From a virus, in IMG/VR virus record IMGVR_UViG_3300044844_000506, positions 47,613 to 111,612 of that record: a stretch of DNA of 64,000 nucleotides. One strand, given 5' to 3'. Below are positions 1 through 63,747 of the stretch, one piece after another. How positions within the stretch are numbered: the first letter of the stretch is position 1; each line of letters starts with the position of its first letter. The notes under the pieces were generated by a model, which was not told the DNA's origin, made no database searches, and worked only from the letters and a program-made list of their open reading frames with translations. The translations under genes were made by a program, and so were the position numbers.

Positions 1-83
1 TATTCTGGAGAATAATCGCTTCCAATGTCAAATGATGAAGTATTATATTCAGACAGACTTAATGTGTTAGATGATGTAGTCAT
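1..83 (-). CDS. 5' end of a hypothetical protein that runs off the window (possibly tail completion/terminator by synteny)
   Basis: ATG at 83 overlaps the TGA of the upstream neck gene (ATGA). The frame is open to the edge: MTTSSNTLSLSEYNTSSFDIGSDYSPE. Function is guessed from position only. Confidence 0.45.
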   Translation of the reverse strand, partial: MTTSSNTLSLSEYNTSSFDIGSDYSPE

Positions 84-598
84 TGTCCTATATCTATGTT
101 GCCTACGGAATCAGGAGTTATCAAGTTTGGTTTATCTACTATTTCTTCGTGACCTCTTAAGAACTTAGCAGTGCAAACATAATGATAAATTCCATAGTTC
201 TCGAATCCATCTTCTTGAACTTCATAAATCTCAAATTTTACTTTTTGAAACTTAGGCTCAATTACATCTCCAGGAATTGGAGGTCTATTTAAGGTCTTAA
301 TGATATATGCTTTATTAAAAGTAAATACCTGTTCAGATTCTAATTCCAAACCAAACTTACTAAGTTTTTCTTCAATTGCTTTAGGGTCATAGTGACCATG
401 AACTAATATAGGAACTTTAGAGATACTTTTTATTCTCTCTTCTAAGTAGACATCACTATAAGTTTTATCCTGATAGTATTTGTAGTATAACATTTCAGAT
501 CCAGATAATTTGATTAACTCATCGTCTACAGAGTTAAACATTTCTATATCAGGATTTTTTAAATCAAATAGATTTAACTTATAAGATCTCTCGGTCAT
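80..598 (-). CDS. neck / head-closure protein, T4 gp14-like
   Basis: 172 aa following the gp13-like gene. Has 'DELIKLSG..YY', 'LSKFGLE', 'RPPIPGDVI..FEIYEV' motifs typical of gp14-like proteins. Confidence 0.75.
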   Translation of the reverse strand: MTERSYKLNLFDLKNPDIEMFNSVDDELIKLSGSEMLYYKYYQDKTYSDVYLEERIKSISKVPILVHGHYDPKAIEEKLSKFGLELESEQVFTFNKAYIIKTLNRPPIPGDVIEPKFQKVKFEIYEVQEDGFENYGIYHYVCTAKFLRGHEEIVDKPNLITPDSVGNIDIGQ

Positions 599-601
599 TT
601 A

Positions 602-1471
602 TTAACCCCAAGAAATATACGGAGGCTCTTCAATCTCATCTACCAGTTCTCTCTCCAGCTTTTCCATTTCTGCTTGAGCTTGTTGAACTAATTCACCACC
701 GTTCAATTGTGCTCCACCAGCGGGAGAAGGTACTGTTTTATACTTACCTCTGATCTGTCCTAAAGTTTCTCTAGATACTGCCAAGGCATATCTATCAATC
801 CAATTAAGATAAGCAGGGTGAATAGTCTCTGTATTTAATCCTCTGAATATTACAATAACTTCTTCTCCACCATACTGAGGAGAAGGATATAACTGTAGAT
901 ATTTTCCATCTATAACATCCCAAGAGCCATCGTTACCTAATATTCTTCTAGTCATCTCTAAGTGGGATTGAAGCAAGTAAAAGTCTCCCATGCTAAAGTC
1001 TGAGAATAAAAAGTTTTCTTGGAAGTATTTAATGAAGAAATCGAACTCTAGTGTACCAGCTTGAGATTGAACACTAAGAAAGTTCTTTTTATAACCAACA
1101 TATTCTAGGTTATCTAGTATGTACTTAGGTAGTTCGTATAGATTTACCCCATAGACAGATTTAAATGCCATCATCTGGGTATTCCATCTAGGAGCATGAT
1201 AGCTTAATTTAGTAATAGCAGAATGGATAGCTTGTTTAATATTAAAATCAGCTAACTCAACTTTAATTACTGGATGACCTAATCTGCCTAACACATAGTT
1301 CTTAATTCCATTTTCAAAATCTGTAAACTCTGTTGATTCAGCAGCATCTACTTTACCTAACTTATCTCTATCAATTTGAGTGTTAGGTATAGTATCTGTA
1401 ACTAGATTTCCAGGAGATTTGCCGAAGCTATTTCCATATCCAGTTAATTCAGGTCTAATTGCTTCTGTCAT
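602..1471 (-). CDS. neck / head-tail adaptor protein, T4 gp13-like
   Basis: 'YVLGRLGHPVIKVEL', 'WIDRYALA..RETLGQIRGKY..P.GGAQLNG..L..QAQAE...LE' are gp13 signatures. Downstream of the capsid gene. Confidence 0.88.
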   Translation of the reverse strand: MTEAIRPELTGYGNSFGKSPGNLVTDTIPNTQIDRDKLGKVDAAESTEFTDFENGIKNYVLGRLGHPVIKVELADFNIKQAIHSAITKLSYHAPRWNTQMMAFKSVYGVNLYELPKYILDNLEYVGYKKNFLSVQSQAGTLEFDFFIKYFQENFLFSDFSMGDFYLLQSHLEMTRRILGNDGSWDVIDGKYLQLYPSPQYGGEEVIVIFRGLNTETIHPAYLNWIDRYALAVSRETLGQIRGKYKTVPSPAGGAQLNGGELVQQAQAEMEKLERELVDEIEEPPYISWG

Positions 1472-1474
1472 ACT

Positions 1475-1600
1475 TTACCCTTTACTAGCTAAATAAGCTC
1501 TCAATGCCTTCTTAAATTTTTTACCAGCAACTATATTCCTAGGTCTTTCCTCAAGAAGAAGTCGTTCGATTAATAATTTTAATCTAACTTTATAATTCAT
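1475..1600 (-). CDS. 41-aa basic peptide with capsid-targeting-like leader (not in the ORF track)
   Basis: Hand-translated: MNYKVRLKLLIERLLLEERPRNIVAGKKFKKALRAYLASKG. ATG overlaps the upstream TGA (ATGA). Stop is 3 nt before the gp13-like start. Confidence 0.7.
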   Translation of the reverse strand: MNYKVRLKLLIERLLLEERPRNIVAGKKFKKALRAYLASKG

Positions 1601-1758
1601 TTCTTTTTAGTCTTTTTAATTTCTGCTTTAACTTCTTCTACTACAGGTTCTGGCTGTACTTTTGGCTCTTCTTTAGCAGCTATTTGAGCAGCCTTTTGAG
1701 CAGCTTTAATTCTGTTTCTTTCTTGTAGTCGTAGGTGCATCATGTTTCTCGGGTTCAT
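1597..1758 (-). CDS. 53-aa charged hypothetical protein (not in the ORF track)
   Basis: Hand-translated: MNPRNMMHLRLQERNRIKAAQKAAQIAAKEEPKVQPEPVVEEVKAEIKKTKKK. Strong SD (GGAGG) upstream and ATGA coupling to the next ORF. Confidence 0.7.
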   Translation of the reverse strand: MNPRNMMHLRLQERNRIKAAQKAAQIAAKEEPKVQPEPVVEEVKAEIKKTKKK

Positions 1759-1897
1759 TGTTGTCCTCCATTAAAATTAAATTAGGAAAATTTAATAATT
1801 CATTTGACTCAAGTACTTGATTAGGGAAAACCTCAATTACTTGATTATTAACTGCGATTAAAAAAGGAAATCGGCATTTTGATTTGTACAAAAACAT
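1706..1897 (-). CDS. small hypothetical protein
   Basis: 63-aa ORF just after the capsid terminator and a CTATATATAAATA motif. Confidence 0.55.
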   Translation of the reverse strand: MFLYKSKCRFPFLIAVNNQVIEVFPNQVLESNELLNFPNLILMEDNNEPEKHDAPTTTRKKQN

Positions 1898-1913
1898 CTA
1901 TTTATATATAGCC

Positions 1914-1961
1914 TATAAAATAAGGATGGGCAGCTTTTTTTATTTAGCTGCCCATCCTTTT
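1914..1961 (-). terminator. intrinsic terminator after the major capsid gene
   Basis: 14-bp perfect stem AAGGATGGGCAGCT (1922-1935) / AGCTGCCCATCCTT (1946-1959), followed on the minus strand by ATTTTAT. Confidence 0.85.
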
Positions 1962-1980
1962 AAGTTACCCTACTTAGTTA

Positions 1981-3516
1981 TTAGACTAAGTTACCAATTG
2001 TCTTTCTGAAAGGCTGGTAGAGGTAGTTGCTGCTGGGACCGATGATTCTAAGAATTCTATAGAACTTAGCTTCGGGAGCGATTGCTAACATACCGTAACG
2101 AGTCATGATACCCTTACGAGGTTGGAATGTAGCAGGATCAACTACTGTGGGGAGGTTCTCAATTGGGATGTAAGGAGCGTAAACGAATCCTGTATCCATT
2201 GGACCAGAACCCTTATAACCCATGAGGATTTCGTCTTCGGGCCAGAGTGGGTCGATGTAAAGATCGAACTTACCACCGAGCTTGCCCTTGAACTGAATCT
2301 GAGTACCCATGTTTGATGGACCTTCAACCTTGGAACCACCATTACCACCCATACCACCACCGAGTTGAGCGGCAGTTTCGAGCATTGCACCAATGAGTGG
2401 TGAGGTAACAATCCAAGTACCAGGACCACGATGAGTGGTCTTGAAGATGTCCTGTGACATGAGATTTAATGTTGCCCACATATTCGACCAAACATGACCG
2501 ATGTGTTGTGGGCTAAAAGGTATTGCTGAAGATGTGAAGTCAATTACCCATACGTTCGTACCTGCACCTGAGGGGTTAGTTACACCAGTGATACCACCAG
2601 TGGTATTGTTGTAATCCCACATGAACTTAGCAGGATTGAAGGTATCTGCACCACCAGTGTTGCCGATTGACTGGCTATTAGCTAAGTCTAGTGCATTTCT
2701 GTACCAACCACCTAAGCCGTTAGCAATGTTGCTATCGTAAGCAATACCACGGAGGTTTTCGAGAAGCTCACGGTCGATTTCGAGACGGAGTTCGTTACCC
2801 ATGAGTTCAGTGAGTTCCTGTTCAAGATCAAGGTTGTGATAAGCCTTGAGATCCTGTGAAGCCTCAATTGTCCAGAGGGTACGCATCTTACGGGTACGAG
2901 CAACAACTGGCTGCTGTTCGATTGTAAGGTTTACTTCTGGAATAGCTGAACCTGAGAGGAATTCACCTGCTGAAATGCTGAAACCATGAGTTCTATCTGT
3001 TAGAGGCCAAGCAGCAATCTTACCACCGAATGTGGTCGAGGCTGAACCTCTTGTAGCACCATAAATAGTGCTCAATTGAACGTCATCATCACCATCGGCA
3101 CTATTAGCACCTACTGGGTTAGTTGTTAAACCACCGTAGGTTAACTGGTACTTGCTATAGACACCTTCTCTTGCTACACCGTATTGACGGCCAGAGCCAA
3201 GGTAGAATACCTGACCAACTGGACCCTGCATGGGCTGCTGAGAAACTATTGCGTTTGCAATTAGCTGAGGGTAAACTCTACGGATTAGAGGGAATGCAAA
3301 CTTCTGGAAGGTTCCAATTGAACCTGTTGAAGTTGCACCTTCAAAACCTGCTACGTTAGTTTCATCAATTCTCTTTGACTTCTCAAGAAGAATTGCCTTT
3401 GCTTGGTTCTCATAAAGAGTAGCTACGACTTTGCGAGTGTAAGAGTCATCAATGCCTTTTAATGCGGCACCCCACTTACCTACAAGGTCTTCGCCATTTT
3501 CAATTAATTCGCTCAT
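1981..3516 (-). CDS. major capsid protein, T4 gp23-like
   Basis: 511 aa. 'KWG..L', 'L.ENQ', 'PLIRRVYP.LIAN.IV..QPMQGP.GQVFY', 'TRKMRT.WTIE..QDLKAYH', 'LEIDRE', 'YAPYIP', 'DP.TFQP..G.MTRYG' are gp23 signatures. Confidence 0.97.
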   Translation of the reverse strand: MSELIENGEDLVGKWGAALKGIDDSYTRKVVATLYENQAKAILLEKSKRIDETNVAGFEGATSTGSIGTFQKFAFPLIRRVYPQLIANAIVSQQPMQGPVGQVFYLGSGRQYGVAREGVYSKYQLTYGGLTTNPVGANSADGDDDVQLSTIYGATRGSASTTFGGKIAAWPLTDRTHGFSISAGEFLSGSAIPEVNLTIEQQPVVARTRKMRTLWTIEASQDLKAYHNLDLEQELTELMGNELRLEIDRELLENLRGIAYDSNIANGLGGWYRNALDLANSQSIGNTGGADTFNPAKFMWDYNNTTGGITGVTNPSGAGTNVWVIDFTSSAIPFSPQHIGHVWSNMWATLNLMSQDIFKTTHRGPGTWIVTSPLIGAMLETAAQLGGGMGGNGGSKVEGPSNMGTQIQFKGKLGGKFDLYIDPLWPEDEILMGYKGSGPMDTGFVYAPYIPIENLPTVVDPATFQPRKGIMTRYGMLAIAPEAKFYRILRIIGPSSNYLYQPFRKTIGNLV

Positions 3517-3527
3517 AATTTTTTATC

Positions 3528-4154
3528 CTATTTATTAGGCATCAATGCCATTACATTCTCGTTGAGGAATGGATTAGAACGATCTAATCCGAATTGTTCA
3601 TCCTTAATTTGTTCCTCTGCAAGAATTAAGGCTTTTTCACTGGACTTAAACGGTCTTCGTGTATCGAGAAGTTCCTCAACTTGCTCAGTTAAAGGAACTA
3701 ATTGTTCTTCTAAAGTTGAGGCAGTCTTCTTGTACTTACCTGCTAACTTTCTGTACTTTTCTAATTCTGGAACTAAATTATTTAATTGTTCAATTAAAAT
3801 CTGATTTTCTTCAATGAGAGAATCTATCTGCTCATTTACTTCAGCTTCAGCTTCTAACTCTTGGTCATCTAATTCAATAGAATCTTCTAATCCTAATAAA
3901 GACTTAAGTTTACGGAATTGAGCAGCATCTCTGTGGAGATCACTTTCGTCCTCTAATTCCTTCTCAGCTTGTTCTTTTAATAGGTCTATGTTGCCTCTAA
4001 TAAAAGCTACTGTTTTAGCTTCTAATAGTTTTACTCTTTGTGTTACTTCCTCATTAATAAAACCTGAAATGAGGGTAGCTATTTCGTCTAAGCTATCCTC
4101 ACTTAAATTATCGGGAAGAAGATCACTTAATTTATCTAATTTATTTGCGTTCAT
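3528..4154 (-). CDS. prohead scaffold/core protein, T4 gp22-like
   Basis: Acidic coiled-coil protein of 208 aa directly upstream of the capsid gene, with many L-x-E sites. Confidence 0.75.
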   Translation of the reverse strand: MNANKLDKLSDLLPDNLSEDSLDEIATLISGFINEEVTQRVKLLEAKTVAFIRGNIDLLKEQAEKELEDESDLHRDAAQFRKLKSLLGLEDSIELDDQELEAEAEVNEQIDSLIEENQILIEQLNNLVPELEKYRKLAGKYKKTASTLEEQLVPLTEQVEELLDTRRPFKSSEKALILAEEQIKDEQFGLDRSNPFLNENVMALMPNK

Positions 4155-4214
4155 AGTTTACCTATCTGTATTTATTCTAGCTAACTTTATTTAAAGATTT
4201 TTTTTATTTTTTGT

Positions 4215-5237
4215 TTAAGAGTCTTCAAATTCACTAAGATGACCTCTTAACTGTTGTAAACTTCGATGTAACGATTGCCTAACTGTATCAGGATTACTAT
4301 TTAAAACTTTTGCTATTTGTATTGTATCATACCCTTTTAAATAATATAATTTAACTATGTTTTGTTGTGTTGGATTTAGTCTTGAGATAGCTTTACCCAA
4401 TTTAGCTCTAACTTCTGATCCAGCTATTCCAGAAGATGGATCTTCATATTCTTTAGGTCCAGAAATAGTAGATCCAAATTCTTTTTCAGTACCTGCTATA
4501 GGAGCATTTAATGAGCCTCCCTCTTTAGATCTAGCTCTTTTTTCTTGTGTATGATATCGTAAAGCATCTCCTACTCTAGCGTTTATAATTTTAGATAAAA
4601 ATCTAGGAAAAGATTCAACATTAAAATCTAGTTTTTCTAAATTTTGAAACCCTTCTTCAAATGCTTGTTGAACTATATCTTCAGCAGATACCTTTGATTG
4701 AAGACTACCTAACCTACTTCTAGCAAATGCAATTAACTTTTTACTATGTTTATTAAATAGTTTATTAGTTGAATCTTCATCGCCTAAGCTGTGAGCCTGA
4801 AGTAATTCATGATCTTCTTTGTCATGAGGAACATTTCTTTGTGCCGCTTTAGCAGCTTCTTTATCAGCTATTGCTTTTTTAACTACCTTTTCTGGAATGT
4901 CTTCAGATGGTGTTTCTGATTTAGGTTTTACTTTTTTAGGTGGAAGTTCTAATGGTACTTTCCAGTAGTCATCACTTTTATCTTTTTGATCTTCTGATTT
5001 CGGCTCTTTTTGTTCTGGCTTCTTAATTACTGGGGTAGCTGTAGGTTTTTCAACTTTAGGAGTAACTTTAGGTTCTTTAGTCTTTGGAGTAGGTTTTTTA
5101 GAAACAATCTTAGGTTTTTCTTTTTTAGGTAGAGGTTCTATTGGTTCTTCAATATCTTCTCCCTCATCTTCTTCAAGAAGAAACTCTTGAATTAAATGAA
5201 TTGAATTTTCGTCTAAGATATTTTTAAAACTAATCAT
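4215..5237 (-). CDS. ECF-type sigma-70 factor (region 2 + region 4) with an N-terminal leader and K/P/E-rich linker
   Basis: Region 2: 'GDEDSTNKLFNKHSKKLIAFARSRL...SAEDIVQQAF...FPRFLSKIINARVGDALR'. Region 4 HTH: 'AISRLNPTQQNIVKLYYLKGYDTIQIAKVLNSNPDTVRQSLHRSLQQLR'. Confidence 0.93.
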   Translation of the reverse strand: MISFKNILDENSIHLIQEFLLEEDEGEDIEEPIEPLPKKEKPKIVSKKPTPKTKEPKVTPKVEKPTATPVIKKPEQKEPKSEDQKDKSDDYWKVPLELPPKKVKPKSETPSEDIPEKVVKKAIADKEAAKAAQRNVPHDKEDHELLQAHSLGDEDSTNKLFNKHSKKLIAFARSRLGSLQSKVSAEDIVQQAFEEGFQNLEKLDFNVESFPRFLSKIINARVGDALRYHTQEKRARSKEGGSLNAPIAGTEKEFGSTISGPKEYEDPSSGIAGSEVRAKLGKAISRLNPTQQNIVKLYYLKGYDTIQIAKVLNSNPDTVRQSLHRSLQQLRGHLSEFEDS

Positions 5238-5238
5238 A

Positions 5239-6405
5239 CTAACAATTCCACTTTCTTAAAGCCTTGTTAATTCTGCTGTTAGGATCATTGGCTGTTTTTG
5301 ATGAGGTACGACTTCTTTTCATTCCACCCATACGAGCGCAGAATGATTTACGTCTCTTAGCAGATTTGCTGCCCTTTTTTAATTTAGATGGATCTGTAGT
5401 TACAGCAGTCTTTAATTTAGAACCAGGATTAGCTCTGCGGTATGCTTCAACTCCTTTTTGAGTTAAACCACCAGCTCTGCTTTTATGTACACCCATTTTC
5501 ATTTTGGGCATTACACCTTTACCTTCTACTAAAATGTTTTTTATGAGTTTGGTATAGGCTTCTACTAAATCTGCTTTAGATTTAACATCCATTACACATC
5601 TTTCAAATTTTTTAGGATCTCTTCCTTTACCAAGAGAAGCATTACACACTGCCCAAGGGTTTACTTTAGATGTGCGTTTAGCTTCATTAACAGGTTTACT
5701 AGGAACACAATTAGGTACTTTTCTCTTACCCTTCATCTTCATACCTACTTGCTGATATCCTTTCCAGCAAGGATCTTTCTTTTCAAAGATTTTAGAGATT
5801 CTATCATCCTTAACTGTATTTAATCTGGATTCAAGTAAGTTTAGTAATACCTTATTATTTAATGCAGCCTTTTTTGTTTTTTCTAGTAACACAGACTCAT
5901 TTACTTGAGATGGATGAGCACCTCTTGTTGAAGGATCCGCAACTAAATCAAATGTTACCGCACGGAAATCTTCATTAACTTCAAATTTGCCTGGAGAATC
6001 TTGACATGGCTTTAATGATCCAAGACCTCTACTGGAAACACCAATTCGTACTCCGTCCTTAATTAACTGTTGAGCTACTTTACCAGCAGGAGTATTTAAT
6101 AGTTGAGATTCCCCTATTAAAACATCTCCTTGCCAGTATAGCTTAGTTACCATGTGTGATGCGTTAGTTAATTTAACTGTTGGACTATCTGGGTGATCTA
6201 ATTCACCTAAAAGTCTATTTTCAGTTACTAATGGCATTAATCTGGTAACTTCTCTTTCTAAAATTGGTTTTGGGTAGCGTCTGTTATTCTTATTGAATTC
6301 TCCAGCACGACCAAAGATACCTCTAATCTTAATAGTACCAGACTCTGTAGACTCTGATATTACTTGAACTGGATCTAATCTAAAGTAATCAATAAGTAAT
6401 TCCAT
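5239..6405 (-). CDS. prohead maturation protease, T4 gp21-like, with a C-terminal extension of basic mini-domains
   Basis: 'NKNNRRYP..IL', 'LGELDHP', 'ASH', 'LNTPAG', 'GVSSRGLGS', 'FDLVADPST' are gp21 motifs in aa 1-170. An extension of about 220 aa follows. Confidence 0.95.
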   Translation of the reverse strand: MELLIDYFRLDPVQVISESTESGTIKIRGIFGRAGEFNKNNRRYPKPILEREVTRLMPLVTENRLLGELDHPDSPTVKLTNASHMVTKLYWQGDVLIGESQLLNTPAGKVAQQLIKDGVRIGVSSRGLGSLKPCQDSPGKFEVNEDFRAVTFDLVADPSTRGAHPSQVNESVLLEKTKKAALNNKVLLNLLESRLNTVKDDRISKIFEKKDPCWKGYQQVGMKMKGKRKVPNCVPSKPVNEAKRTSKVNPWAVCNASLGKGRDPKKFERCVMDVKSKADLVEAYTKLIKNILVEGKGVMPKMKMGVHKSRAGGLTQKGVEAYRRANPGSKLKTAVTTDPSKLKKGSKSAKRRKSFCARMGGMKRSRTSSKTANDPNSRINKALRKWNC

Positions 6406-6433
6406 TTTTTATCCTTTATATTTCTTATTAAAA

Positions 6434-6676
6434 TTATGCACCATAAAATGGTCTGCGTCTAATTGTAGCTCCAGTCGGACCTTTTTTTGGATTTCCTTCT
6501 ATAAATTTCTGAAATGCAGAAGGCTTTGGAGATTGTGGTTTTTTAGGTTTATCTCCTTTTTTATGATGTGGTAATGATGCAAATTCTCCTTTACCAGATC
6601 TAGGATCGTCTGAAGGATAATTAGCTTCAGCTAAAAGTAAATCATAAATATAGTCAAAATAATTTATTTTATTCAT
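6434..6676 (-). CDS. putative internal head protein (basic, leader-bearing)
   Basis: 80 aa. Leader MNKINYFDYIYDLLLAE, then a K/P-rich body. Confidence 0.6.
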   Translation of the reverse strand: MNKINYFDYIYDLLLAEANYPSDDPRSGKGEFASLPHHKKGDKPKKPQSPKPSAFQKFIEGNPKKGPTGATIRRRPFYGA

Positions 6677-6705
6677 AGGTTAACTTTCCCAAAGTAATTC
6701 TATAA

Positions 6706-7737
6706 TTATTCCTCCCAAGATTCTTCTTTATCTTTCTTGGCTCTCTCTCTTTCCATTTCTGATTGATAAGCCGCAGTAAGTTCAGCAGATTTCCCACCTT
6801 TAGCCTTAGCAGCAGCCGCTATTTCTTTAGATCGTAAATCTTGTAAAGCACGCTTTTTACGATCTCTTTCTGCTTGTTTTATAGCAGCGACGCCAGTTTT
6901 CTTGGGTTTTACTTTAGAAGAAACTACTTTACCATGTTTGTCTATTTCAATTGGAGTCATTCCACCTGATGCACTTAGTTTATGACCTAACTGCTTTTCA
7001 GCAGACGATAGTCTCTTTCTTCTTGATTCCAATGCCTTCTTTCGTCTACTTAATCTTGTTTCAGCCTCTTTTTCCATTTTAGGAAACTCTGAGGGACTGG
7101 CTTCTCTATAAGCCTGTCTAGCTTTTTTAAGTTCTTGTGCTTTTGCAGCTAAATCACCTTTAGCTCTAGCTGTTCCAGCACCTTTTTCTCCAGGTTTTAA
7201 TAACTTATCTTCTGTAGCTTCCTTATGTGCTTTTAATGCATCTCTTAATCTTTGTCTTGTTTTTTCAGATGCAGAAGAATATGCGTCTATTCTAGCTTTT
7301 CTACCTGCTGCTACTGCCTCTCGTCTCTTACGTCTTAATGATCCCTTCTTAGCTTTAGGATCAGAAGCTAATTTTGTTTTAGCTTCTTCTGCCTTAGATT
7401 TTTTAGACTGGTATTCCTCTCGTTTTTTTCTAATTGCTCTTAATTTAGCTTGCTCTCTTGATAGTTTTCTTTCGTGACCAGATACTCTTCTAGTAGATAG
7501 TCTAAGACCTTTTTCTACTTCTGACTCATAGGTATCCTCTGTTTGTCTTGGTTTTTTATATGATTGTTCACTTTCTTTTTGAGATAGAGGTTTATCTTTT
7601 TTTAAAGCCTCTGCTGCTTTTATATTATGTTTACGTCTTTCTGATCTTACTCCAAACTGTTTTTCTTTAATTGCATCTATCTCTTTTTGACTAAGTTCTA
7701 AAAGTAAAGAAGCAATGCTATTATATGTATTGTTCAT
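6706..7737 (-). CDS. putative internal head protein, very basic and helical
   Basis: 343 aa, K/R/E/A-rich. Leader MNNTYNSIASLLLE. Lies in the head cluster. Confidence 0.65.
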   Translation of the reverse strand: MNNTYNSIASLLLELSQKEIDAIKEKQFGVRSERRKHNIKAAEALKKDKPLSQKESEQSYKKPRQTEDTYESEVEKGLRLSTRRVSGHERKLSREQAKLRAIRKKREEYQSKKSKAEEAKTKLASDPKAKKGSLRRKRREAVAAGRKARIDAYSSASEKTRQRLRDALKAHKEATEDKLLKPGEKGAGTARAKGDLAAKAQELKKARQAYREASPSEFPKMEKEAETRLSRRKKALESRRKRLSSAEKQLGHKLSASGGMTPIEIDKHGKVVSSKVKPKKTGVAAIKQAERDRKKRALQDLRSKEIAAAAKAKGGKSAELTAAYQSEMERERAKKDKEESWEE

Positions 7738-7739
7738 GT

Positions 7740-8129
7740 TTAATAACCTTTTCTAGTTATTTTTTTCTTTTTAGCTTTAACTTTAGGAGTTCCTCCCATA
7801 TTAGTTCCGATACTCCCGCAAGTGGTCATTTCATCAATAAGGTTTTTAGCTTCTTGAATTAAATGCATTAACTTTTTAACGTATACTTCAGGATTAACTG
7901 TCTGATTGGATTCTCTTACGACAGGAGAAACTTTTTTAGTTGTCTTCTCACCAAATGAATGTTCTAATATAGTATTAGTATACGAATGAGGAACTGTTAC
8001 CTTAGATATATCAGGAGCATTAGGTCTTATAATACCTTGGGGAGTCGAAACAAGTTTTCCTTGTTTCGACTCACTTTTAAGTATTGATTCTGCTATATTA
8101 GCTATATCAAAATCTTTTTGCTTAGGCAT
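7740..8129 (-). CDS. putative prohead core/internal protein
   Basis: 129 aa with IAE, ILE, IQE and IDE sites and a basic C-terminal tail. Confidence 0.55.
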   Translation of the reverse strand: MPKQKDFDIANIAESILKSESKQGKLVSTPQGIIRPNAPDISKVTVPHSYTNTILEHSFGEKTTKKVSPVVRESNQTVNPEVYVKKLMHLIQEAKNLIDEMTTCGSIGTNMGGTPKVKAKKKKITRKGY

Positions 8130-8134
8130 AAAAA

Positions 8135-9013
8135 TTATCTTCGTGTAACTGGAGAAGCTCCAGTCATTAGATTTTTAAGAGTTCCGTGTAATCCACCTAA
8201 GTTAACCTTTGCTAATGCTTTAGATCTTTGTGGATTACTATGTTGACCAAATTCACTTACACCTTTTTTAAATTTAGGAGAAATGGCTCCACCTATTTTA
8301 GCTGCAACACCAGCGAGTTTACTTCCGCCATGACGAGCAGCGCCGACTCTTCTACCAGCTTTTTCCATAGCACTAACTTCAACTAGTAAATGAGCAATTT
8401 GTACATATGTCTCGTTCATTGGTTCGCCTTCTATTTCATTGTGTGTAAATCTCATGCCAACTCTCTTATATCTTTCTTCGGTTGCTTTACGTTTTTCTGG
8501 ATCAATAAAAGTTTGTGCTTTTTGTCCTGGAGCCGTCTGCTTTTTAAAATAACCTAAAGCTGTATTTTGCTTCTTACCCTTACTTTTTGTGATTTGAGCC
8601 TGTGTTGGTTGTGAACTCAATGTACCTGCTCTACCATGCATTAATCTATTTGTTTGGCGAGCTTTTAATAGGTCAGCATATGCTTTATTTCTGCCTTTCT
8701 CATCTTTACCTCTTACAGCTTTACCATAAGCCTTAACAGCTTCACCGTGCTTCATTTTTGCACCTTTTTGTAACTGCGCTTGTTTCCATTGGCCTCCCTT
8801 AGATCTTAAGGCAGAACCAATCTTCTTCATTCCCCCACCAACCATACCCTTTAATGCGGTTAAAAACTCTTGTAATAATTCCTCGTCTTCTAAGAGAATA
8901 GGAATGAGTTCTTGCTGGTGATCAAGAGGAACACCTTCTTCTGTGAGAAGAGCACTTAAATTTCTTTTCTCTTCTTCTAATAGAAGAGATTCTTTAATTA
9001 TGGAATAATACAT
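8135..9013 (-). CDS. putative internal head polyprotein (two basic modules)
   Basis: Acidic leader with repeated LLE/LTE/LQE, a basic module, an internal leader MNETYVQIAHLLVE, then a second basic module. Confidence 0.6.
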   Translation of the reverse strand: MYYSIIKESLLLEEEKRNLSALLTEEGVPLDHQQELIPILLEDEELLQEFLTALKGMVGGGMKKIGSALRSKGGQWKQAQLQKGAKMKHGEAVKAYGKAVRGKDEKGRNKAYADLLKARQTNRLMHGRAGTLSSQPTQAQITKSKGKKQNTALGYFKKQTAPGQKAQTFIDPEKRKATEERYKRVGMRFTHNEIEGEPMNETYVQIAHLLVEVSAMEKAGRRVGAARHGGSKLAGVAAKIGGAISPKFKKGVSEFGQHSNPQRSKALAKVNLGGLHGTLKNLMTGASPVTRR

Positions 9014-9019
9014 GGGGTA

Positions 9020-9373
9020 TTACTCCTCGTCTTCGTCTTCAGATTCTTCGTCGTACTCTTCTTCGTCGTACTCTTCACCATCGTCTTCTGATTCTTCTTC
9101 TGATTCTTCATCTGAATCGTCTTCTTCAGACTCTTCTAATGATTCATTTAGAGTATCTTCAACAGCAGTGAATACTTCTAACATAGCTGCGCTGTGCTCT
9201 AATAAAGCCTCTTCGCTGATTGGTTCAGCGAGATTTGATTGGCATAGAGGACAAACATGAGCTTCTGTTACGGGAGCCTGATCTGAGCATTCAGTTAATG
9301 CGTCTTTTTCAGTGGGTAGCCAGCTTGCACCCTCAGTAATAGCCTTTACATAATTTTTAGAAACGTGTGACAT
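9020..9373 (-). CDS. acidic prohead-core-like protein with CxxC
   Basis: 117 aa with CPLC and a poly-E/D C-terminus. Preceded by GGAG SD and CTAAATA. Confidence 0.6.
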   Translation of the reverse strand: MSHVSKNYVKAITEGASWLPTEKDALTECSDQAPVTEAHVCPLCQSNLAEPISEEALLEHSAAMLEVFTAVEDTLNESLEESEEDDSDEESEEESEDDGEEYDEEEYDEESEDEDEE

Positions 9374-9454
9374 AAATTCTCCTTAAGAGTAATCCTATCA
9401 TTATTTAGAATCCAATAAGATAAAATGAAAGAATATTTTATTTTTTGAATTATT

Positions 9455-10252
9455 TTAAGTACAGTCAAATGATCGTATAGTACCACCTTGGTTGCCAAAA
9501 TAAATAGGTCTTGATGCTGTACTTAAATAAAATGTTACTATTGTAGGACGTTCAAAGTATTCAGAAACGTAATTATTAACTGTAATAACATGAACACTAC
9601 TTAAATAAAAGTTAGTTACATCCCCAGTTAAAGTTATAACTCCAGTATTTAAATCTATTTTATATGGATAGGGGAAAGGGGGATCAACACTCATTATTTT
9701 AGGTATAGTTTCATCTTTAATGTCTTTTCCAGTATCTTCCTCTTTAATTGGAGTATAGTATTCTGGAACTACTGCTAATCTTCCAACAGAAGATAGCCAT
9801 GATTCGACATAAATTTTATTACAAGTTTGATATGTAATTAAATCAAGACTGTTAAGTTTATAATCTAAAACAGGAAGTCCAACGGTATAACCGATAGTGT
9901 TTTCAGGATCTTGTATATCTGTATATGCGTTAGCAGATTGACTCTGAGATACGGATACACCTTCATCTATCAATACATCTGTAGATCCATTATCACCTAC
10001 ATCTCCACATGAGATTTTATCTCCGTCTCTATGAATCCCTTTTCCATTAGCAAAAACTGTAGTAGATCCACCTAACACTGGACCCATTTGATGACAAGCT
10101 GGACCACAACAATGAGTTTGACCATAATTATCATCTATTCTAACAACAGGCTTATCATTAACAAAAACGTCTGGGGAACCATTTACTGAGAATGTTGGAG
10201 AGTAGCAGTGTCCCTGAGACACATCAGTTAAAGCTCTTATTGGTCTTGGCAT
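9455..10252 (-). CDS. PAAR spike-tip protein (gp5.4-like) with a C-terminal extension
   Basis: 'GHC', 'GSPDVFVND.PVVR..D', 'GSTTVFANGKGIHRDGD.ISCG' PAAR repeats in the first ~97 aa, then about 170 extra aa. Confidence 0.88.
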   Translation of the reverse strand: MPRPIRALTDVSQGHCYSPTFSVNGSPDVFVNDKPVVRIDDNYGQTHCCGPACHQMGPVLGGSTTVFANGKGIHRDGDKISCGDVGDNGSTDVLIDEGVSVSQSQSANAYTDIQDPENTIGYTVGLPVLDYKLNSLDLITYQTCNKIYVESWLSSVGRLAVVPEYYTPIKEEDTGKDIKDETIPKIMSVDPPFPYPYKIDLNTGVITLTGDVTNFYLSSVHVITVNNYVSEYFERPTIVTFYLSTASRPIYFGNQGGTIRSFDCT

Positions 10253-13200
10253 TATAGTAAGGATTCTTCTTCAGGTGGTACAGGAGGTCTTACAGGAACT
10301 TCTATAGCGTATGATAACTGGATATCTTGAAGCCCCTTACTAGATACAATTCTAGTCGGGTTTCTTCTGGATGAAGCGTCTTTATTTTTAGGGGATTTAA
10401 CATGATAAATTTTGGTGTTAGTTTTTTCACCATTTTTAAGTTTATTAATAACTTTAACATCCGCTCTTTTATTTAAAGTATACATATGCTTTCTGTCTAA
10501 TCTAGCTAATAAGTCATACCATGTAATCCCATTATCAATTTCATAATTCTCTTTAATTTCTTCAACTTTAATAACTGCGGCTCGGACTGGATCCAACTCT
10601 CTTTCTGGTATTTCTTCTGGATTCTTATATGTTTTAGTATAGTTTGTCGTATCTCCGTACCTGCAAATATAAGATTGAGTGCTATAATCTCCTGACTTAC
10701 TTTCACCTTCAGAATGTATGTAAGAGTTAAGAACCTCAAATGGGTGCTGTAACAGTCCGATATCGTTTAGCTTTTTATCTGGAGACATCTCCCATCTTAG
10801 TTCTCTAACATTCCAATCTTTTAACAATGAGTTAGCATTATAGAAGTTGTAGAAAGTTCTATTCGTTGGAGTTATTACTATAAATCTAGGAATTTTTCTT
10901 ACTAAGAAAGGATCAGTCTCATCATCTTTAAATCCAAACCCATCATAAGTTACATCTCTAAATGTAAATTTAAATGTCGTTCCACTAACAGAAGAATTAC
11001 TGTAATCAAAATAGTCCCATATAGGATCATCGTGGTTAATAGTTAACACTAACCAAGGGTATGCTCTATAAATGATATCATCATTTAAATCTTGAATATC
11101 TTGCTGGCTACTAGTTACGATATTATAATACGCATCTGTTTCTTTTATAAATGGGGAAAGCTCTGAATTATCATCAATTATTGTAGACGTATTTAATTGT
11201 AATATATAGTGGCTTAGTGGTGGATTAACACTGCTAGTTATTTCTACGTTTACATCTGGGCATGAAGCGGTTAAAAGAACCTGTTTATCAAACCCCAAAT
11301 GATACATAATTAAATGTTCATCATCATTTCTTAATACGTTAGCATTAGCTATATTTGATTCAGTTGGTATATTTATTTCTTCAGACGAGGTAATGTAACA
11401 CTGCAAAGTATCGTTGATAGTTAATTCTAATAGTACCTTGTTTCCAGATGAATCTAAAGCCTCAATAGAATCAGTGTTTTGAACATAAAAGTTTTCTTCC
11501 CCACTAGATGTAATAAAAACACATCTCTTGTTTATATCGGTAGGTAATGTATACCATAGATCTAATAAGTTTTTTGAATCATCTGTGTATTTATTTGGAT
11601 CTATAGAAAGCATTTTTTTGGGTATTAAAGACTCTCCATAGTTTCTATTCCTACTAACTGTTGTATCTATATCTGCTGATCGTGTAGAGATAGTTCTATT
11701 TGTAGCTAATGAAGATTTACTAATTCCATATCTAGATTTTTCTACTGAAGTAATATTAGGTCTAACAGTATTTACTAAAGGGATTTCTTTAGTTAATTCT
11801 TGAATATAGTCTGAATCTAGTTTATCTACCGAATCAGTTTCTATTGATCTACGAATAATATTAGAGATTTTAGTAGCATCTACAGGGACGCCATTAGTAT
11901 ATTTTAAATTATAGAGTCTTCTAAATGAACTATTTAAGCTATTTTTTATGTGGTCATCAGATATGTTAGTAGCATCTATTACTGCTTCTTCAAATGTTCC
12001 TGATTCTTTATTGATAATACGATTTATACTATAGTGGCGGATCTTACCAAATATGTTTGAGTTTTTTTCACCGTAAGTGGGTAAAAACTGAGATGGACTT
12101 AAAGAATATTTAGTATATTTTAGATCGTACTCACTTTCTGCGGTGTAACTTGATCTTGTAATTTGATCATAGTATTTTTTACCATCGCTAGTATTCAAGT
12201 TCCCAACAGGAGAATTTTCATCATAGTAAAGATTAGATATTATATTAGTGTCTATGTTTTCAGTATTAGAAATTGCTGTGAGGGTAATGGTATAAACAGT
12301 ATTAACTAATAAATTATTAAACACACAAGTATGAACATCATCAGGAACACTTAAATTAATTGTTTGAGAATTATTATTTTGATCTGTTAAAATAACTTGA
12401 GCAGTGGTATTTAATGGATTTTGTGTTGTTTGTTCTACAGTTTCAAAACCTACGTTTAATGATAGAGAGTTATTTGAAAAACTAAATAATGCTTCTTCAT
12501 TTAAAATTACAGGTATTTCTTCTTGTGGTTGTCCGTAATTAGGACATTGTACATCTACAGATAATTGATCAGATTGACCACCAAGTCCAAAAGACTGTAT
12601 ATTAACTCTATAATTTCTTAGAGGTATTAAACTAGGGTAATTTATACTTTGAGAAAAAGGAGAAACTGTTCCTATTAAATCAAAAGCATCTATAGTTTGA
12701 TTATTAAATAAATCAGTTATGATAACCGTAGAATCTGCTTGAATGTGCTGGTTAGTTGCTAAGTTAATTACTTCCCAATAAATGTTTAATACAGGAGAAT
12801 TATTTTGAATAATAATTTGTATGTCAGAATTAACAATCTCTAAATCATCTACTGGAGGTGTAGAATTAGTTGTGATTGTTCTTGTAATTGTTGCAGGATT
12901 ATACTGTACATATTGATTCCAATTTAAGTTTTTAGTAACAGTGATAGAGTAAGTATATTGTTCTCCAGGAGTTAAGCCATTAAAGTTTATAACGTGAGTT
13001 TTAGATAAATTATTATTGGTAACTTGAGCTAATATAACAGATGGGTTAGATGTTAAAAATATAAAAGCTGTAAGTCGAACTGTAAAATTTGATTGAGTAA
13101 TACAAGTTAAACTATTTTCTGATACTTGTTCTTGTGTTACAACTACAGTCAAATCTTCTTCATACGGTGGTAAATCAGGAGGAATAGGTCCACTAGGCTC

Positions 13201-55328: not shown

Positions 55329-57188
55329 TTAACTACTTAAAGTTTTTAAGTTCTTAAGTTTTTCTTGTATTGATTTTAATGCTTTTACTTTAATTACATC
55401 AGATTCTGATAATAATACACTATCTAAGTATTTAAGTGTTTCGTTTTGAGGAGAGTCCATTCCTGCTGACCCTGGTTGTTGTTGAGCTATGTTTCCAGAT
55501 CTTCCCCCTACACCAACCATTCCACTATCTCCTACTTCTTGAGGCATTTCACCCCCAGCTTCGGGATTTGCTGCGCCCATCATTTGCTGTTGCATCATTT
55601 GTTGCTGCATAGCTTGATCTTGTTGCTTTTGCATTTCTTTAGCTTCTTGGTCTTCTAGTAACTTAAGTTCTTTACCAATTTCATCTGTGGACATTTCATA
55701 GTATTCTCTATAAACAGTTTCTTTAGAGAATAACCCGCTACCAAGAACAGCAGTTACAACTCTTGTCTTTGCCTCATCAATCTCTAATTTACGCTTGGTA
55801 TACATATCTGACGGATCAGGCATTTCAACTCTAAGTTCATTGATTAAAGATTGAGGGAATCCCTTTATCTTTAAATGCCTTCTTATTAATGCTTGTAAAC
55901 CAAATGTAAATTGATGCTGAACACGCATTACTGTTCTACCAAACTTAACGTCTAATTGACTTAAGTTTGCTTTTCTTTCAGCACCCTTATCTTTAGATTC
56001 TACGATGTAGTCTCTGGGAACCTTCATACCTCCTAAAACCTTATCTAGGAAGTACTTAACGTCATCTATGTCTCCTAAGTTCTGTGCTCCAGGAAGAACA
56101 TCAACTCTTGTTTCTTTATCTCCTCTATGTGGAATAAACAAATCTTCATCAACAGATAGAGGATTAAAACGCTCATCTATATTACCTGTGCTAGTGTTGA
56201 AGAACTTCTCTTTACGGAGTTTCTGCTTCATTTGATCTACGAATGTGGCAACTCTGTGAGAAGGAATGTTACCTGTGTTAATGTAGAATACTCTTCTCTC
56301 GGGTGCGCGTGAGAGTCGGTATACCAACATAGCATCTTCCATCAACTTTAGAGATCTAAATGCTCTAATTACTCCACCAGCTACACCACGACCATAAGGA
56401 TAGAATCTAGGATCTGAAGTGTGTAATCTAAAGTGTAGAATCTGATTCTTGTCTAGTGTAATATAGTTATTTCTAGCCATTGAATCGGATTGAGAACCGA
56501 AAGCTGACCAGTCAATAGTTTTTGGTATTTCCTGCAAGAATGCAGTTAAATAGCCATACATATTCTCAACACGAATTATAAAGTTAGGGTTAAGTATCTT
56601 AATTCTTTGAACACCTGACTTTGGATTATTTTCATCGACAATAATTTCTACGAAACAATCACCAAACTTAACCATGTTTCGTATAATGTCCCAATAATAT
56701 CTTTCTAAATCAACAGTTTTAAATAGTCTTTCTACTTCATCTTTCACTATTTGACTAGAAGATTTAATAACCCATCTTTTACCTTGAATATTTCTTTGGG
56801 TTGAATCGTCTGCGTATAAATCAAATGCGGATGAAATTTCAGGATATTCATCCATGCTCTCAAATTGACGATATCTTTCTTTTCTGGATCTTTCGTATTC
56901 AGGGATAAGAACTGTTCGAACAACTAATTCAGGACCATCATAAACCTGAGCAGTTTTAATCTTTACCGTATCAATACTAGTATAAGTATCGCCAGCTTGA
57001 GGAGCTTTCTCATAAGCCTTTTGATCTTGACCCTGTAAAGAGATGTATGGTTTTGCCGAAGTAGCAAAGAATTTGGCAAACCATCTACCAGCAGATCCTA
57101 AAGGGGTAAACCAGTTACCCGATCCTAGTATAGGTCCACCAAATGAGGTTTCCCCAGCTTCATTAATCATTTTTTTATTATCTGCCAC
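55329..57188 (-). CDS. portal protein, T4 gp20-like
   Basis: 'Y...E.MD..PEI..A.D..ADD', 'LKLMEDAMLVYRL.RAPERRVFYI..GN.P', 'EDLFIP', 'LPG..NLG.IDDV.YF...L...KVP'. GTG start. Confidence 0.96.
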   Translation of the reverse strand: MADNKKMINEAGETSFGGPILGSGNWFTPLGSAGRWFAKFFATSAKPYISLQGQDQKAYEKAPQAGDTYTSIDTVKIKTAQVYDGPELVVRTVLIPEYERSRKERYRQFESMDEYPEISSAFDLYADDSTQRNIQGKRWVIKSSSQIVKDEVERLFKTVDLERYYWDIIRNMVKFGDCFVEIIVDENNPKSGVQRIKILNPNFIIRVENMYGYLTAFLQEIPKTIDWSAFGSQSDSMARNNYITLDKNQILHFRLHTSDPRFYPYGRGVAGGVIRAFRSLKLMEDAMLVYRLSRAPERRVFYINTGNIPSHRVATFVDQMKQKLRKEKFFNTSTGNIDERFNPLSVDEDLFIPHRGDKETRVDVLPGAQNLGDIDDVKYFLDKVLGGMKVPRDYIVESKDKGAERKANLSQLDVKFGRTVMRVQHQFTFGLQALIRRHLKIKGFPQSLINELRVEMPDPSDMYTKRKLEIDEAKTRVVTAVLGSGLFSKETVYREYYEMSTDEIGKELKLLEDQEAKEMQKQQDQAMQQQMMQQQMMGAANPEAGGEMPQEVGDSGMVGVGGRSGNIAQQQPGSAGMDSPQNETLKYLDSVLLSESDVIKVKALKSIQEKLKNLKTLSS

Positions 57189-61648: not shown

Positions 61649-62920
61649 ATGTTTTATAATTTAAAGTATTTACTAATAGAAGGTTCCAGTAACTTAGGCA
61701 GACTTCAAAGACTGGAAAAAAGATTCAGAAGAAAACTAAGAAAAGCCAAAGAGCGTGGTGACACTATGGCTAAGATTAAAAACGTAAAAGCCTTAAGAGA
61801 CATTAAATTAAGACTTCAAGAAAGACTACCAAAGGATATGAAAAGATATCCACTCTTTAGCGGCGAAGATAAACCCTCACCTAAAAGAACAATTAAAATA
61901 AGGCCAACTAAAGTAAGACCAAGAGTATCTCTAGACGTAGAAGAAATACCCCGAATGCCAAAAGGAGGTATAGGTAGAAGAGATCTAGTCTATAACATTA
62001 AACACGGAGATAGGGATATAGGAAGCGGATCAGCAGATTTACATGGTAAACATCTACAAACAAGATTCGCATCCATTCAACCCAGTCATCAAGGTAAAGG
62101 AATATATACCGGAATCCTTAAATCACTTAAAAGAACATATAAACCAAAAACATTTAGACCAGATACAAGCCTAACCCCAGCAGCAAGAAAAGCATGGTAT
62201 AAAGCTACTAAAAAAACCTACGATGAATTTGGTAACTTAATTAAGGAATCAAAATTAAAAACTTATAACAGGTTAAGTAATTTATTAATAGAAGCAGTAC
62301 CTCATCATATTAAGTCTTTTAGGAGAAAACAAGCATTAGTCGGAAACCCTGAAAGCAGGTTTCATATGACTAGTCTTGGTGGTTTAAGAGGTATATTAAA
62401 ATCAGGTATAATAAATCCAACTCTAACACATAAATCTCTACATGGCTTAAACGCTGTTTATTTTGGTAAAAAATACCCAGATACAGCTTACGGACATGAA
62501 GGTATAGCTAGTACTAAACCAGGATTTGATAGAGCATCACCATTCCCAAAATCAGGAAAAGATCACTACTTAGCCCCAGACCCAGAAGTAGATCTAACAC
62601 CAGGTGGGACTAAACTAGATAAATCCAATACAGCATTTAATATAGATCCAAAAGATACAGAAACAATTAAACTAGCAAGACAAAGAGGTATGAGAGTAGT
62701 TTATAAAGATCCACAAAACATAAGAAAAATATATAACTACAGATCAGGTCAAAATACTATTGAAGATCCTCACTATACCAAAATGCCTATATACCCAACA
62801 CTAGGACATAAAGTAGGAGGACCAGAAAGCGTAGAAAAGTTAATAGGTAAACTAGCCATGAGAAGACATAGATCCGAAAGAAAGAAACTAAGAAAACAAC
62901 GTAGATTAGGTAATATTTAA
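61649..62920 (+). CDS. putative internal-head polyprotein: GNAT-like domain + ADP-ribosyltransferase-like domain
   Basis: Leader MFYNLKYLLIE. GNAT motif A 'SIQPSHQGKGIYT' and 'SLTPAARKAW'. Internal leader KTYNRLSNLLIE. 'FHMTS...L.GILKSG.I.P...AVYF' resembles the start of ART folds. Confidence 0.6.
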   Translation: MFYNLKYLLIEGSSNLGRLQRLEKRFRRKLRKAKERGDTMAKIKNVKALRDIKLRLQERLPKDMKRYPLFSGEDKPSPKRTIKIRPTKVRPRVSLDVEEIPRMPKGGIGRRDLVYNIKHGDRDIGSGSADLHGKHLQTRFASIQPSHQGKGIYTGILKSLKRTYKPKTFRPDTSLTPAARKAWYKATKKTYDEFGNLIKESKLKTYNRLSNLLIEAVPHHIKSFRRKQALVGNPESRFHMTSLGGLRGILKSGIINPTLTHKSLHGLNAVYFGKKYPDTAYGHEGIASTKPGFDRASPFPKSGKDHYLAPDPEVDLTPGGTKLDKSNTAFNIDPKDTETIKLARQRGMRVVYKDPQNIRKIYNYRSGQNTIEDPHYTKMPIYPTLGHKVGGPESVEKLIGKLAMRRHRSERKKLRKQRRLGNI

Positions 62921-62938
62921 CTAATAGTATTACCTACA

Positions 62939-63133
62939 CCCATAGGAGTCCCAGAGTTTTTTAAATTCTGGGATTTTTCTATTTATAGAAGTCCCTTAAT
63001 AATTAGGAGTCCCCAGGAGTCCCAAATTTTTTTTATTTTTTTTATTGGGATTATACCCATAGGAGTCCCATAACATTTTTTTATTTGGATTATAAATTTT
63101 TTATTTGGATTATAAATTTTTTTTATTAGGGAT
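62939..63133. repeat. AT-rich noncoding region with five (T/C)AG(G/A)AGTCCC boxes and a 20-bp tandem duplication
   Basis: Boxes near 62943, 62986, 63004, 63014 and 63060. TTTTTATTTGGATTATAAAT occurs twice at about 63078-63117. Hairpin TCCCAGA..TCTGGGA at 62949-62973 followed by a T run. Confidence 0.85.
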
Positions 63134-63172
63134 GTTAAAATAATAGTACTAGGTATATTGCGCGAATGACCT

Positions 63173-63208
63173 AAAGAAGCCGGAAAACCCCTTTCGAGAT
63201 TTTCCGGC
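63173..63208 (-). terminator. intrinsic terminator of the GC-rich minus-strand gene
   Basis: Minus strand reads GCCGGAAAATCTC-GAAA-GGGGTTTTCCGGC-TTCTTT, about 30 nt after the stop at 63240. Confidence 0.85.
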
Positions 63209-63239
63209 GTAGTATCACTCGCTCACGCTTTCGCCAGCG

Positions 63240-63650
<411 letters not shown>

Positions 63651-63705: not shown

Positions 63706-63731
63706 GTCGTATTCCGCGCGGAAACGTGACA
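63706..63731 (-). promoter_or_regulatory. candidate ECF-type promoter TGTCAC-N16-CGAC
   Basis: About 55 nt upstream of ATG 63650. The spacer holds the palindrome TTCCGCGCGGAA (63712-63723). Promoter function is inferred. Confidence 0.4.
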
Positions 63732-63747
63732 GGAATCCGAAAGAAAA

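Follow-up and report, generated by a model that had tools for sequence, protein, structure and literature searches.

A sigma factor among the head genes of an uncultured phage with a T4-type head module: a candidate cargo of the virion

Phage transcription is known to start either from promoters read by the host holoenzyme or with an injected complete polymerase, as in N4, phiKZ and the crAss-like phages. The stretch of viral DNA described here, 64,000 nucleotides long and called the window throughout, raises the question of whether a sigma factor alone could be delivered with the genome for the same purpose. The window corresponds to bases 47,613-111,612 of the 111,612-bp IMG/VR virus record IMGVR_UViG_3300044844_000506, and coordinates marked "genome" below follow the numbering of that record. 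On the minus strand of the window, between the genes for the prohead protease and the scaffold, an open reading frame (ORF) encodes a sigma factor of the extracytoplasmic function (ECF) type, and the protein begins with a leader reminiscent of the capsid-targeting sequences of T4 internal proteins. What is such a gene doing in a head operon? In our judgement the chances are about even that the sigma factor is packaged, processed and ejected and that it then reads private promoters; the concept of T4-type head cargo in which the payload is a sigma factor is partly supported by the evidence given below. If true, an injected sigma factor would represent an economical third mode of starting transcription, in which a cargo of approximately 35 kDa retargets the host enzyme, and the place of the gene among head genes would be explained. 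The T4 capsid-targeting system would then carry regulators besides anti-restriction proteins and Alt, and the leader, protease, sigma factor and 36-nt promoter would make up a natural compact system for delivering orthogonal transcription control by phage particles.

The ECF sigma gene in its head operon

The record has terminal repeats and 35% G+C and is rated complete, and the source phage is uncultured. Its head module is of the T4 type and includes a Gp23 capsid protein, a prohead protease of the Peptidase_S77 family, a portal (55329-57170) and a coiled-coil scaffold (Pfam, PHROG); the replication genes, a family-A polymerase and a DnaB helicase, are not of that type. To the capsid protein of any deposited phage the identity is just 26-35%, and more than 400 uncultured relatives are present in IMG/VR. 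No RNA polymerase domain was detected among the eight largest ORFs, the profile scans having covered approximately one third of the 143 ORFs, so that a polymerase is not strictly excluded; with none detected in the scanned ORFs, the sigma factor would have to use the host core enzyme. The sigma gene, its parts and the adjacent head genes are as follows.

4215..5237, minus strand: ECF-type sigma factor gene (P0001), 340 amino acids, from the open ORF and its translation
5172..5237, minus strand: leader, residues 1-22 (MISFKNILDE NSIHLIQE FLLE), candidate capsid-targeting and cleavage peptide
4833..5171, minus strand: acidic patch (residues 23-36) and K/P/E-rich disordered linker (residues 37-135), from composition and model
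4518..4829, minus strand: sigma region 2 domain, residues 137-240 (Pfam Sigma70_r2; predicted local distance difference test score, pLDDT, >90)
4221..4439, minus strand: sigma region 4 domain, residues 267-339 (Pfam Sigma70_r4_2; pLDDT >90)
5239..6405, minus strand: prohead protease (Peptidase_S77, gp21-like) fused to a basic DUF6321 tail (Pfam and PHROG)
3528..4154, minus strand: scaffold gene (gp22-like coiled-coil), located between the protease and capsid genes in 72 related loci
1981..3516, minus strand: major capsid protein of the gp23 family (Pfam Gp23), probable maturation site RIDE52/T (the slash marks the putative cut)
1922..1959, minus strand: intrinsic terminator hairpin closing the head operon after the capsid gene (14-bp stem and U-run, -29.2 kcal/mol, z -5.4)

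The 340-amino-acid protein is a genuine ECF sigma factor. Sigma70_r2 (PF04542) matches residues 160-229 with 34.8 bits against a Pfam cut-off of 24, and Sigma70_r4_2 (PF08281) matches residues 279-330 with 39.8 bits against 25.7; the Sigma70_ECF model is also above its Pfam cut-off, and NCBIfam TIGR02937 (sigma70-ECF) reaches 83.7 bits (cut-off 42.9). None of the defined ECF subgroups reaches its own cut-off. Regions 1.1 and 3 are unmatched, only the r2, r4 and ECF models of Pfam being hit, and the linker between sigma2 and sigma4 is short. In the AlphaFold2 model, built on 61 sequences, this linker (residues 241-266) is disordered, as is the N-terminal part to about residue 115 apart from a helix at 11-24; over the acidic patch and the following linker the pLDDT is 47-65, with no secondary structure until a further helix at 116-134. 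Residues 37-135 include 28 K+R, 17 D+E and 16 P. The best PDB matches to the model in Foldseek are ECF sigmas (SigW, sigmaE, SigH, SigL, SigK and AlgU). The initial annotation of this locus had claimed a complete region 2 plus region 4 ECF sigma between the protease and scaffold genes, and the Pfam and TIGR02937 hits, the AlphaFold2 model and the PDB fold matches bear this out. A close homolog of the whole protein was found neither in 5.8 billion clustered proteins nor in 50,697 phage records nor, by pattern, in IMG/VR (0 in each), and residues 1-135 had no match among 1.84 billion representative proteins (HMMER), where only ECF domains of approximately 30% identity were found.

Similarly to bacterial ECF (group 4) sigmas, the protein has sigma2 and sigma4 only, joined by a short disordered linker, is approximately 30% identical to many members 200 amino acids long, and comes with a bipartite GC-rich candidate promoter. 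Unlike them, it has an N-terminal extension of 135 residues and no adjoining anti-sigma gene (the neighbors are the protease and scaffold genes), and its gene is not preceded by a copy of the candidate promoter. With T4 gp55 it shares the nature of a phage-encoded specificity factor for the host polymerase, but gp55 is devoid of region 4, for which the sigma ORF gives the sole match in the whole genome.

The stop codon TAG of the protease gene and the ATG of the sigma gene are separated by one base, exactly as first annotated. Genes from 9373 to 1981 are closely packed with gaps of 1-29 nt, plus a single 60-nt gap before the scaffold gene, and a scan of window positions 1-10500 listed no terminator-like site on the minus strand inside this unit. 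The sigma gene can be placed in the head transcription unit because of the 1-nt gap, the tight packing, the absence of an internal terminator-like site and the location of the sole strong terminator behind the capsid gene. T4-type late promoters (TATAAATA) are not enriched in the window (14 found vs. 12.9 expected), and a scan of the head region for sigma-70-type promoters gave fewer matches than shuffled sequences did. In the alignment of the adjacent gp21-type protease to T4 gp21 (5JBL) the catalytic His (in ELDHP) and Ser (in GVSSRG) are both present. As to the capsid protein, the maturation site [IV][DN]E is kept across the clade and was aligned with KVP40, where the mature peptide starts after LNE62. 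Another candidate, LLE45 in the capsid propeptide, was dropped, as it is not conserved in the alignment of KVP40 and the relatives and [IV][DN]E is.

The leader and the slot between protease and scaffold

Candidate cleavage sites of the form (L/I)xE end at E10, E18 and E22 of the sigma leader. The initial reading of MISFKNILDE-NSIHLIQE-FLLEE followed by a low-complexity linker stands, the latter being acidic at residues 23-36 and K/P/E-rich at 37-135. The T4 internal proteins IPII and IPIII both start with MKTYQEFIAE, as their sequences verify, and the main determinants in T4 are residues 4 and 7 for capsid targeting and residues 8 and 10 for processing (PMC9026906, a review of Black's work). 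MISFKNILDE and MKTYQEFIAE agree in an aromatic residue at position 4, a hydrophobic one at 7, an aliphatic one at 8 and Glu at 10, and the resemblance to a targeting sequence that was first pointed out from these residues holds. The corresponding pattern, M-x-x-[YFW]-x-x-[FILVM]-[IL]-x-E, occurs in one of the 143 ORFs, that of the sigma factor, with 0.038 expected. There are four [LI]xE motifs within the first 25 residues against 0.27 expected (Poisson P ~1.7e-4), a count reached among the 143 ORFs only by the sigma ORF and the neighboring ORF 8135..9013. An internal start that would skip the leader was looked for, but among the first 170 codons only codon 1 is ATG, GTG or TTG; being the sole possible start, it ensures that the leader is always translated.

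The position between the protease and scaffold genes was surveyed in 53 related loci carrying both the protease and the capsid gene. The scaffold gene follows the protease gene directly in 46 of these, and in the other seven a gene intervenes. In L002, the capsid protein of which is 91% identical, the slot is occupied by an ECF sigma of 255 amino acids. L003 and L004 (capsid protein 81% identical) have in common a basic slot protein of 334 amino acids beginning MTNSFGQILVYESLGLSHLLE/AKK, and other basic non-sigma proteins fill the slot in L022, L024, L027 and L050. Altogether the six non-sigma loci hold five distinct basic proteins, four of which start with a leader ending in LLE, LGE or IAE. 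In the close relative L088 the slot is empty and two leader proteins are encoded upstream of the protease. Since it is either empty or variably filled with leader-bearing basic proteins, the slot behaves like the variable, fast-diverging internal-protein loci of the T-even phages (PMC3012670).

The sigma factor described here and that of L002 are only 30% identical, compared to 81% for the flanking scaffold and 91% for the capsid protein, and this fast divergence resembles that of T4 internal proteins (PMC3012670). Two further sigmas of the L002 type, P0057 and P0153, were found, and in all three an N-terminal leader ending in LL[IL]E precedes an acidic linker. The 25-residue leader of this type, MNYLAYVKEL.E.EA.LN.LL[IL]EQM, is 80% identical vs. 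71% for the whole protein, and is hence maintained by selection. No homolog that had lost both the leader and the head-operon position was found: L002, P0057 and P0153, the only orthologs detected, keep the leader, and L002, the context of which is known, keeps the slot as well. In addition, a 2-kb Logan contig encodes an ECF sigma of 254 amino acids (P0007) with an N-terminal extension of 47 residues beginning MQSFRTLLEK, much like MISFKNILDE; it was not found in viral contigs.

The likeness to T4 internal proteins extends to a short N-terminal leader that is hydrophobic at residues 4 and 7 and has its (I/L)-x-E site at 8-10, to the gp21-type protease, gp22-like scaffold and gp23 capsid protein, to a variable and fast-evolving gene set and to a partly basic protein. 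On the other hand, the cargo here would be a two-domain ECF sigma instead of a small basic anti-restriction protein, its gene is inside the head operon, and the leader may reach 22 residues with three candidate sites. T4 Alt is head-packaged, gp21-processed and non-essential; once ejected, it reprogrammes the host RNA polymerase as soon as infection begins (PMC9026906). Both proteins would be head cargoes aimed at RNA polymerase (packaging being putative for the sigma factor), but Alt, an ADP-ribosyltransferase, modifies the alpha subunit enzymatically, whereas the sigma factor would replace the specificity subunit. An annotated sigma, Gp10, has been detected by mass spectrometry in purified virions of Salmonella phage Arash together with phage beta and beta' subunits, and its presence could according to the authors equally be carry-over (PMC10585845). 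In common with the N4-like, phiKZ/AR9-like and Arash phages, transcription machinery would enter with the DNA and early genes would be independent of host factors, delivery being what we propose for the sigma factor. The N4-like and phiKZ/AR9-like phages, however, deliver a whole polymerase and the Arash sigma is accompanied by beta and beta', whereas no polymerase domain was seen here in the scanned ORFs. Our literature searches gave no paper on a sigma factor that is loaded via a capsid-targeting sequence.

Accessory status, candidate promoters and rival explanations

The ECF sigma is accessory and not the core late sigma factor. No region 4 or ECF-profile match was found in five large relatives (a CheckV-complete one of 129,906 bp and four large fragments). 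Outside the window, an ORF of 117 amino acids with a weak region 2 match only is located at genome 39174-39527 on the plus strand (L083:19174-19527). The protein is kept at 51-55% identity in four of the five relatives without an ECF sigma, including the complete one. In full length it aligns to the N-terminal part of T4 gp55, not significantly (hhalign E = 0.07), and by tblastn it had no match in phages. Judged by these comparisons the sigma2-only protein is a candidate gp55-like late factor and a better analog of gp55 than is the ECF sigma, which has region 4. Because relatives lacking the ECF sigma include a complete genome and four of the five keep the 117-amino-acid factor, late transcription in this group of phages does not need the ECF sigma.

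If not the late genes, what could the sigma factor read? A bipartite GC-rich, ECF-like element is found in three places.

63706-63733 (genome 111318-111345), minus strand: ECF-like element CCTGTCACGTT-N5-GCGGA[AG]TACGAC
genome 5518-5545, outside the window, same strand as the window copy: another copy of the element
genome 12685-12712, outside the window, same strand as the window copy: a further copy of the element

All three share a conserved 36-nt GC-rich core, TTCCTGTCACGTT-N3-GCGCGGA[AG]TACGACCC, and the string TGTCAC-N16-CGAC occurs three times in the genome against 0.085 expected per shuffled genome. Each copy occupies an intergenic position on the coding strand, none falls within the structural module, and two of the three are approximately 60 nt ahead of the next ATG. 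The genes downstream are ORFans without a PHROG match; the element at genome 12685-12712 is followed by an ORF of 168 amino acids, a pistol ribozyme and then tRNA-Leu, tRNA-Arg and tRNA-Lys. TGTCAC-N16-CGAC is absent (0 in 413 kb) from the five sigma-less relatives, and the 36-nt element has no exact match in other viral contigs. It is also missing from the L002, L003, L004, L022 and L024 contigs, which says little as these are fragments of the structural module. The two copies outside the window match no Rfam family at its gathering score, and nothing credible at E up to 1 was seen around the window copy. In its layout the element resembles the promoters of ECF sigmas. The promoter consensus of ECF41 sigmas, TGTCACA-n16-CGTC (PMC3426412), likewise has TGTCAC and a suitable spacing. 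No copy of the element is located upstream of or near the sigma gene, so the sigma factor is not autoregulated.

Several smaller features were observed around these elements. The pistol ribozyme, outside the window at genome 11951-12036 on the minus strand (L082:11951-12036; Rfam RF02679, 56.1 bits vs. a gathering score of 34.5), may cut the mRNA apart from the tRNA precursor. Starting approximately 60 nt after the window copy, a GC-rich ORF of 136 amino acids (window 63240-63650, minus strand) in the 35% G+C genome has a PT-repeat N-terminus and no family match. Downstream of the copy at genome 5518-5545, two near-identical intergenic elements of approximately 120 nt (genome 4616-4737 and 5095-5222), each with a terminator-like hairpin, separate small ORFs.

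Taken together, a cycle can be proposed in which the accessory ECF sigma would be a late product that shares its transcript with the prohead protease and is translationally coupled to it. By means of the leader the sigma factor would enter the scaffolding core of the prohead, as in the case of T4 internal proteins or Alt, and the gp21-type protease would cut the leader off after Glu10, Glu18 or Glu22. The mature protein, consisting of the acidic patch, the basic disordered linker, sigma2 and sigma4, would remain in the DNA-filled head until its ejection together with the genome. Inside the new cell the protein would join the host core RNA polymerase and steer it to the three private GC-rich ECF-like promoters, which would head blocks of small ORFan genes, the three tRNAs with the pistol ribozyme, and a single GC-rich ORF. 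Delivery would in this way give immediate phage transcription independent of the host primary sigma. That the sigma factor is apparently made only with head proteins and that the candidate promoters head non-structural blocks would fit delivery to the next cell. The notion that a phage with no detected polymerase injects a leader-trimmed free ECF sigma, which captures the host core for promoters that host sigmas do not read, is offered tentatively, and we are slightly inclined to doubt it.

A number of points weigh against delivery. Targeting, cleavage, ejection and the reading of the three elements are steps that we infer. The pattern expectation of 0.038 is generous, since the pattern was composed after the match was seen, and the capsid protein of the phage that supplied it, T4, is just ~26-31% identical. 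The conserved site in the capsid protein is [IV][DN]E and not LLE; the protease motif is hence short and common. A position-specific scoring matrix (PSSM), trained solely on the non-sigma leaders of related phages, was applied to the 143 N-termini, and the sigma factor scores 5.4 bits, with SIHLIQEFLLE as its top site, and ranks ninth, compared to 9-13.5 bits for clear leaders. With T4-like first ten residues and this rank, the sigma leader is at most a loose member of the local leader family; nor does the L002-type sigma leader sit in the same 10-residue register. Just three or four such sigmas are known, mostly from short contigs. The putative link from the sigma factor to the elements is not backed by covariation, as no orthologous genome permits it. 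The likeness to ECF41 is limited to the promoter, where the -10 is CGAC and not CGTC, and the protein ends just after sigma4 without the C-terminal SnoaL-like extension of ECF41 sigmas.

The simplest rival is an unpackaged phage sigma, made with the head genes and acting in the same cell on late or very late genes or reinforcing late transcription, with an N-terminal extension that has nothing to do with the capsid and serves as a disordered spacer or in regulation. We consider this unlikely, if far from negligible. Sigmas by which phages redirect the host polymerase are common, with no known case of packaging (PMC7824862). The modest match of the leader to the local family and the shortness of the (L/I)xE motifs suit such a protein, and the timing of the three promoter-headed blocks is fixed by nothing, which tells against delivery as well. 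It is less easily reconciled with a T4-type leader pattern confined to the sigma ORF, with a motif density equalled only by a leader-bearing neighbor, with leader-bearing basic proteins in the slot of relatives and with the conservation of the leader among L002-type orthologs. Copies of the element are absent at structural genes, and the sigma-less relatives, one with a complete genome, keep the sigma2-only factor; that the group runs its programme without the ECF sigma counts against it being the sigma of the structural genes. Furthermore, tRNAs and blocks of ORFans are in T4 more typically expressed before the late stage.

The protein might also be packaged and ejected and yet not initiate at phage promoters, acting as a decoy vs. 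host sigmas or titrating an anti-sigma or defence sensor of the host, or, in a variant of this explanation, serving as a DNA-associated internal protein with a co-opted sigma fold. All of the packaging evidence applies equally here, the very fast divergence (30% vs. 81-91% for the flanking genes) is like that of the arms-race protein IPI* of T4 (PMC3012670), and the basic K/P-rich linker resembles the neighboring basic cargo proteins. Nevertheless, we hold this to be improbable, as the model gives a confident fold for both DNA-recognition domains and their scores are those of an ordinary ECF sigma, and the private ECF-like element is present in three copies and missing from the sigma-less relatives. 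Processing of pro-sigmaE and pro-sigmaK couples transcription to sporulation stages, and an extension with protease motifs on a sigma encoded beside a protease gene brings to mind a similar checkpoint, where the leader and linker would hold the sigma factor inactive until the prohead protease acts, thereby tying a late gene class to head assembly. In T4, however, gp21 acts only in the prohead, and a sigma of ~35 kDa cleaved inside could not get out. Substrates of T4 gp21 are cleaved during prohead maturation, when they are already part of the core (PMC9026906). Lysis and structural genes are not preceded by the element either, and we regard such a checkpoint as highly improbable.

Neighboring ORFs and minor observations

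Upstream of the protease gene the head operon contains four further ORFs.

6434-6676, minus strand: head-operon ORF
6706-7737, minus strand: head-operon ORF
7740-8129, minus strand: head-operon ORF
8135-9013, minus strand: head-operon ORF

The products of 6434-6676, 6706-7737 and 8135-9013 are internal-protein-like, basic and of low complexity, with hydrophobic leaders ending in LLLE or LLLAE. Just beyond the window, an ORF of 129 amino acids is also basic and of low complexity with a similar hydrophobic leader. By the leader PSSM, 6706 ranks first and 8135 second among the 143 N-termini, and the 129-amino-acid ORF and an ORF of 423 amino acids starting at 61649 complete ranks 1-4. In the proteins of the head module 11 LLE tripeptides were counted where 1.75 are expected, a 6-fold enrichment (P = 4e-7). 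Downstream of the capsid gene an unannotated ORF of 41 amino acids (window 1475-1600, minus strand) has MNYKVRLKLLIERLLLEE followed by a basic tail and looks like a leader-bearing mini-cargo.

The ORF of 423 amino acids (window 61649-62920, plus strand) starts with MFYNLKYLLIE and is fourth in the PSSM ranking. It has no Pfam, NCBIfam or PHROG match. ESM Atlas leads include a GNAT fold at residues ~78-198 and viral clusters with ART-PolyVal (score 0.82, a lead only), and the product is possibly an effector injected in the manner of Alt.

In this phage and in L088 the protease and the basic DUF6321 domain form a single protein, whereas in L002 (517-1267) and L003 (5909-6331) the domain is encoded by a separate ORF preceded by an LLLE/K site. 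From this arrangement the domain looks like a cargo module that the protease releases. The "terminal repeat" of 127 bp (window 63886-64000 and genome 1-127) is a tandem array of the 12-mer ATTATTAGTTCG, and beside this array, at genome 110533-110851 (window 62921-63239), repeated GGGACTCCT and TTTATAATCCAAATAAAAAA motifs resemble the iterons of an origin.

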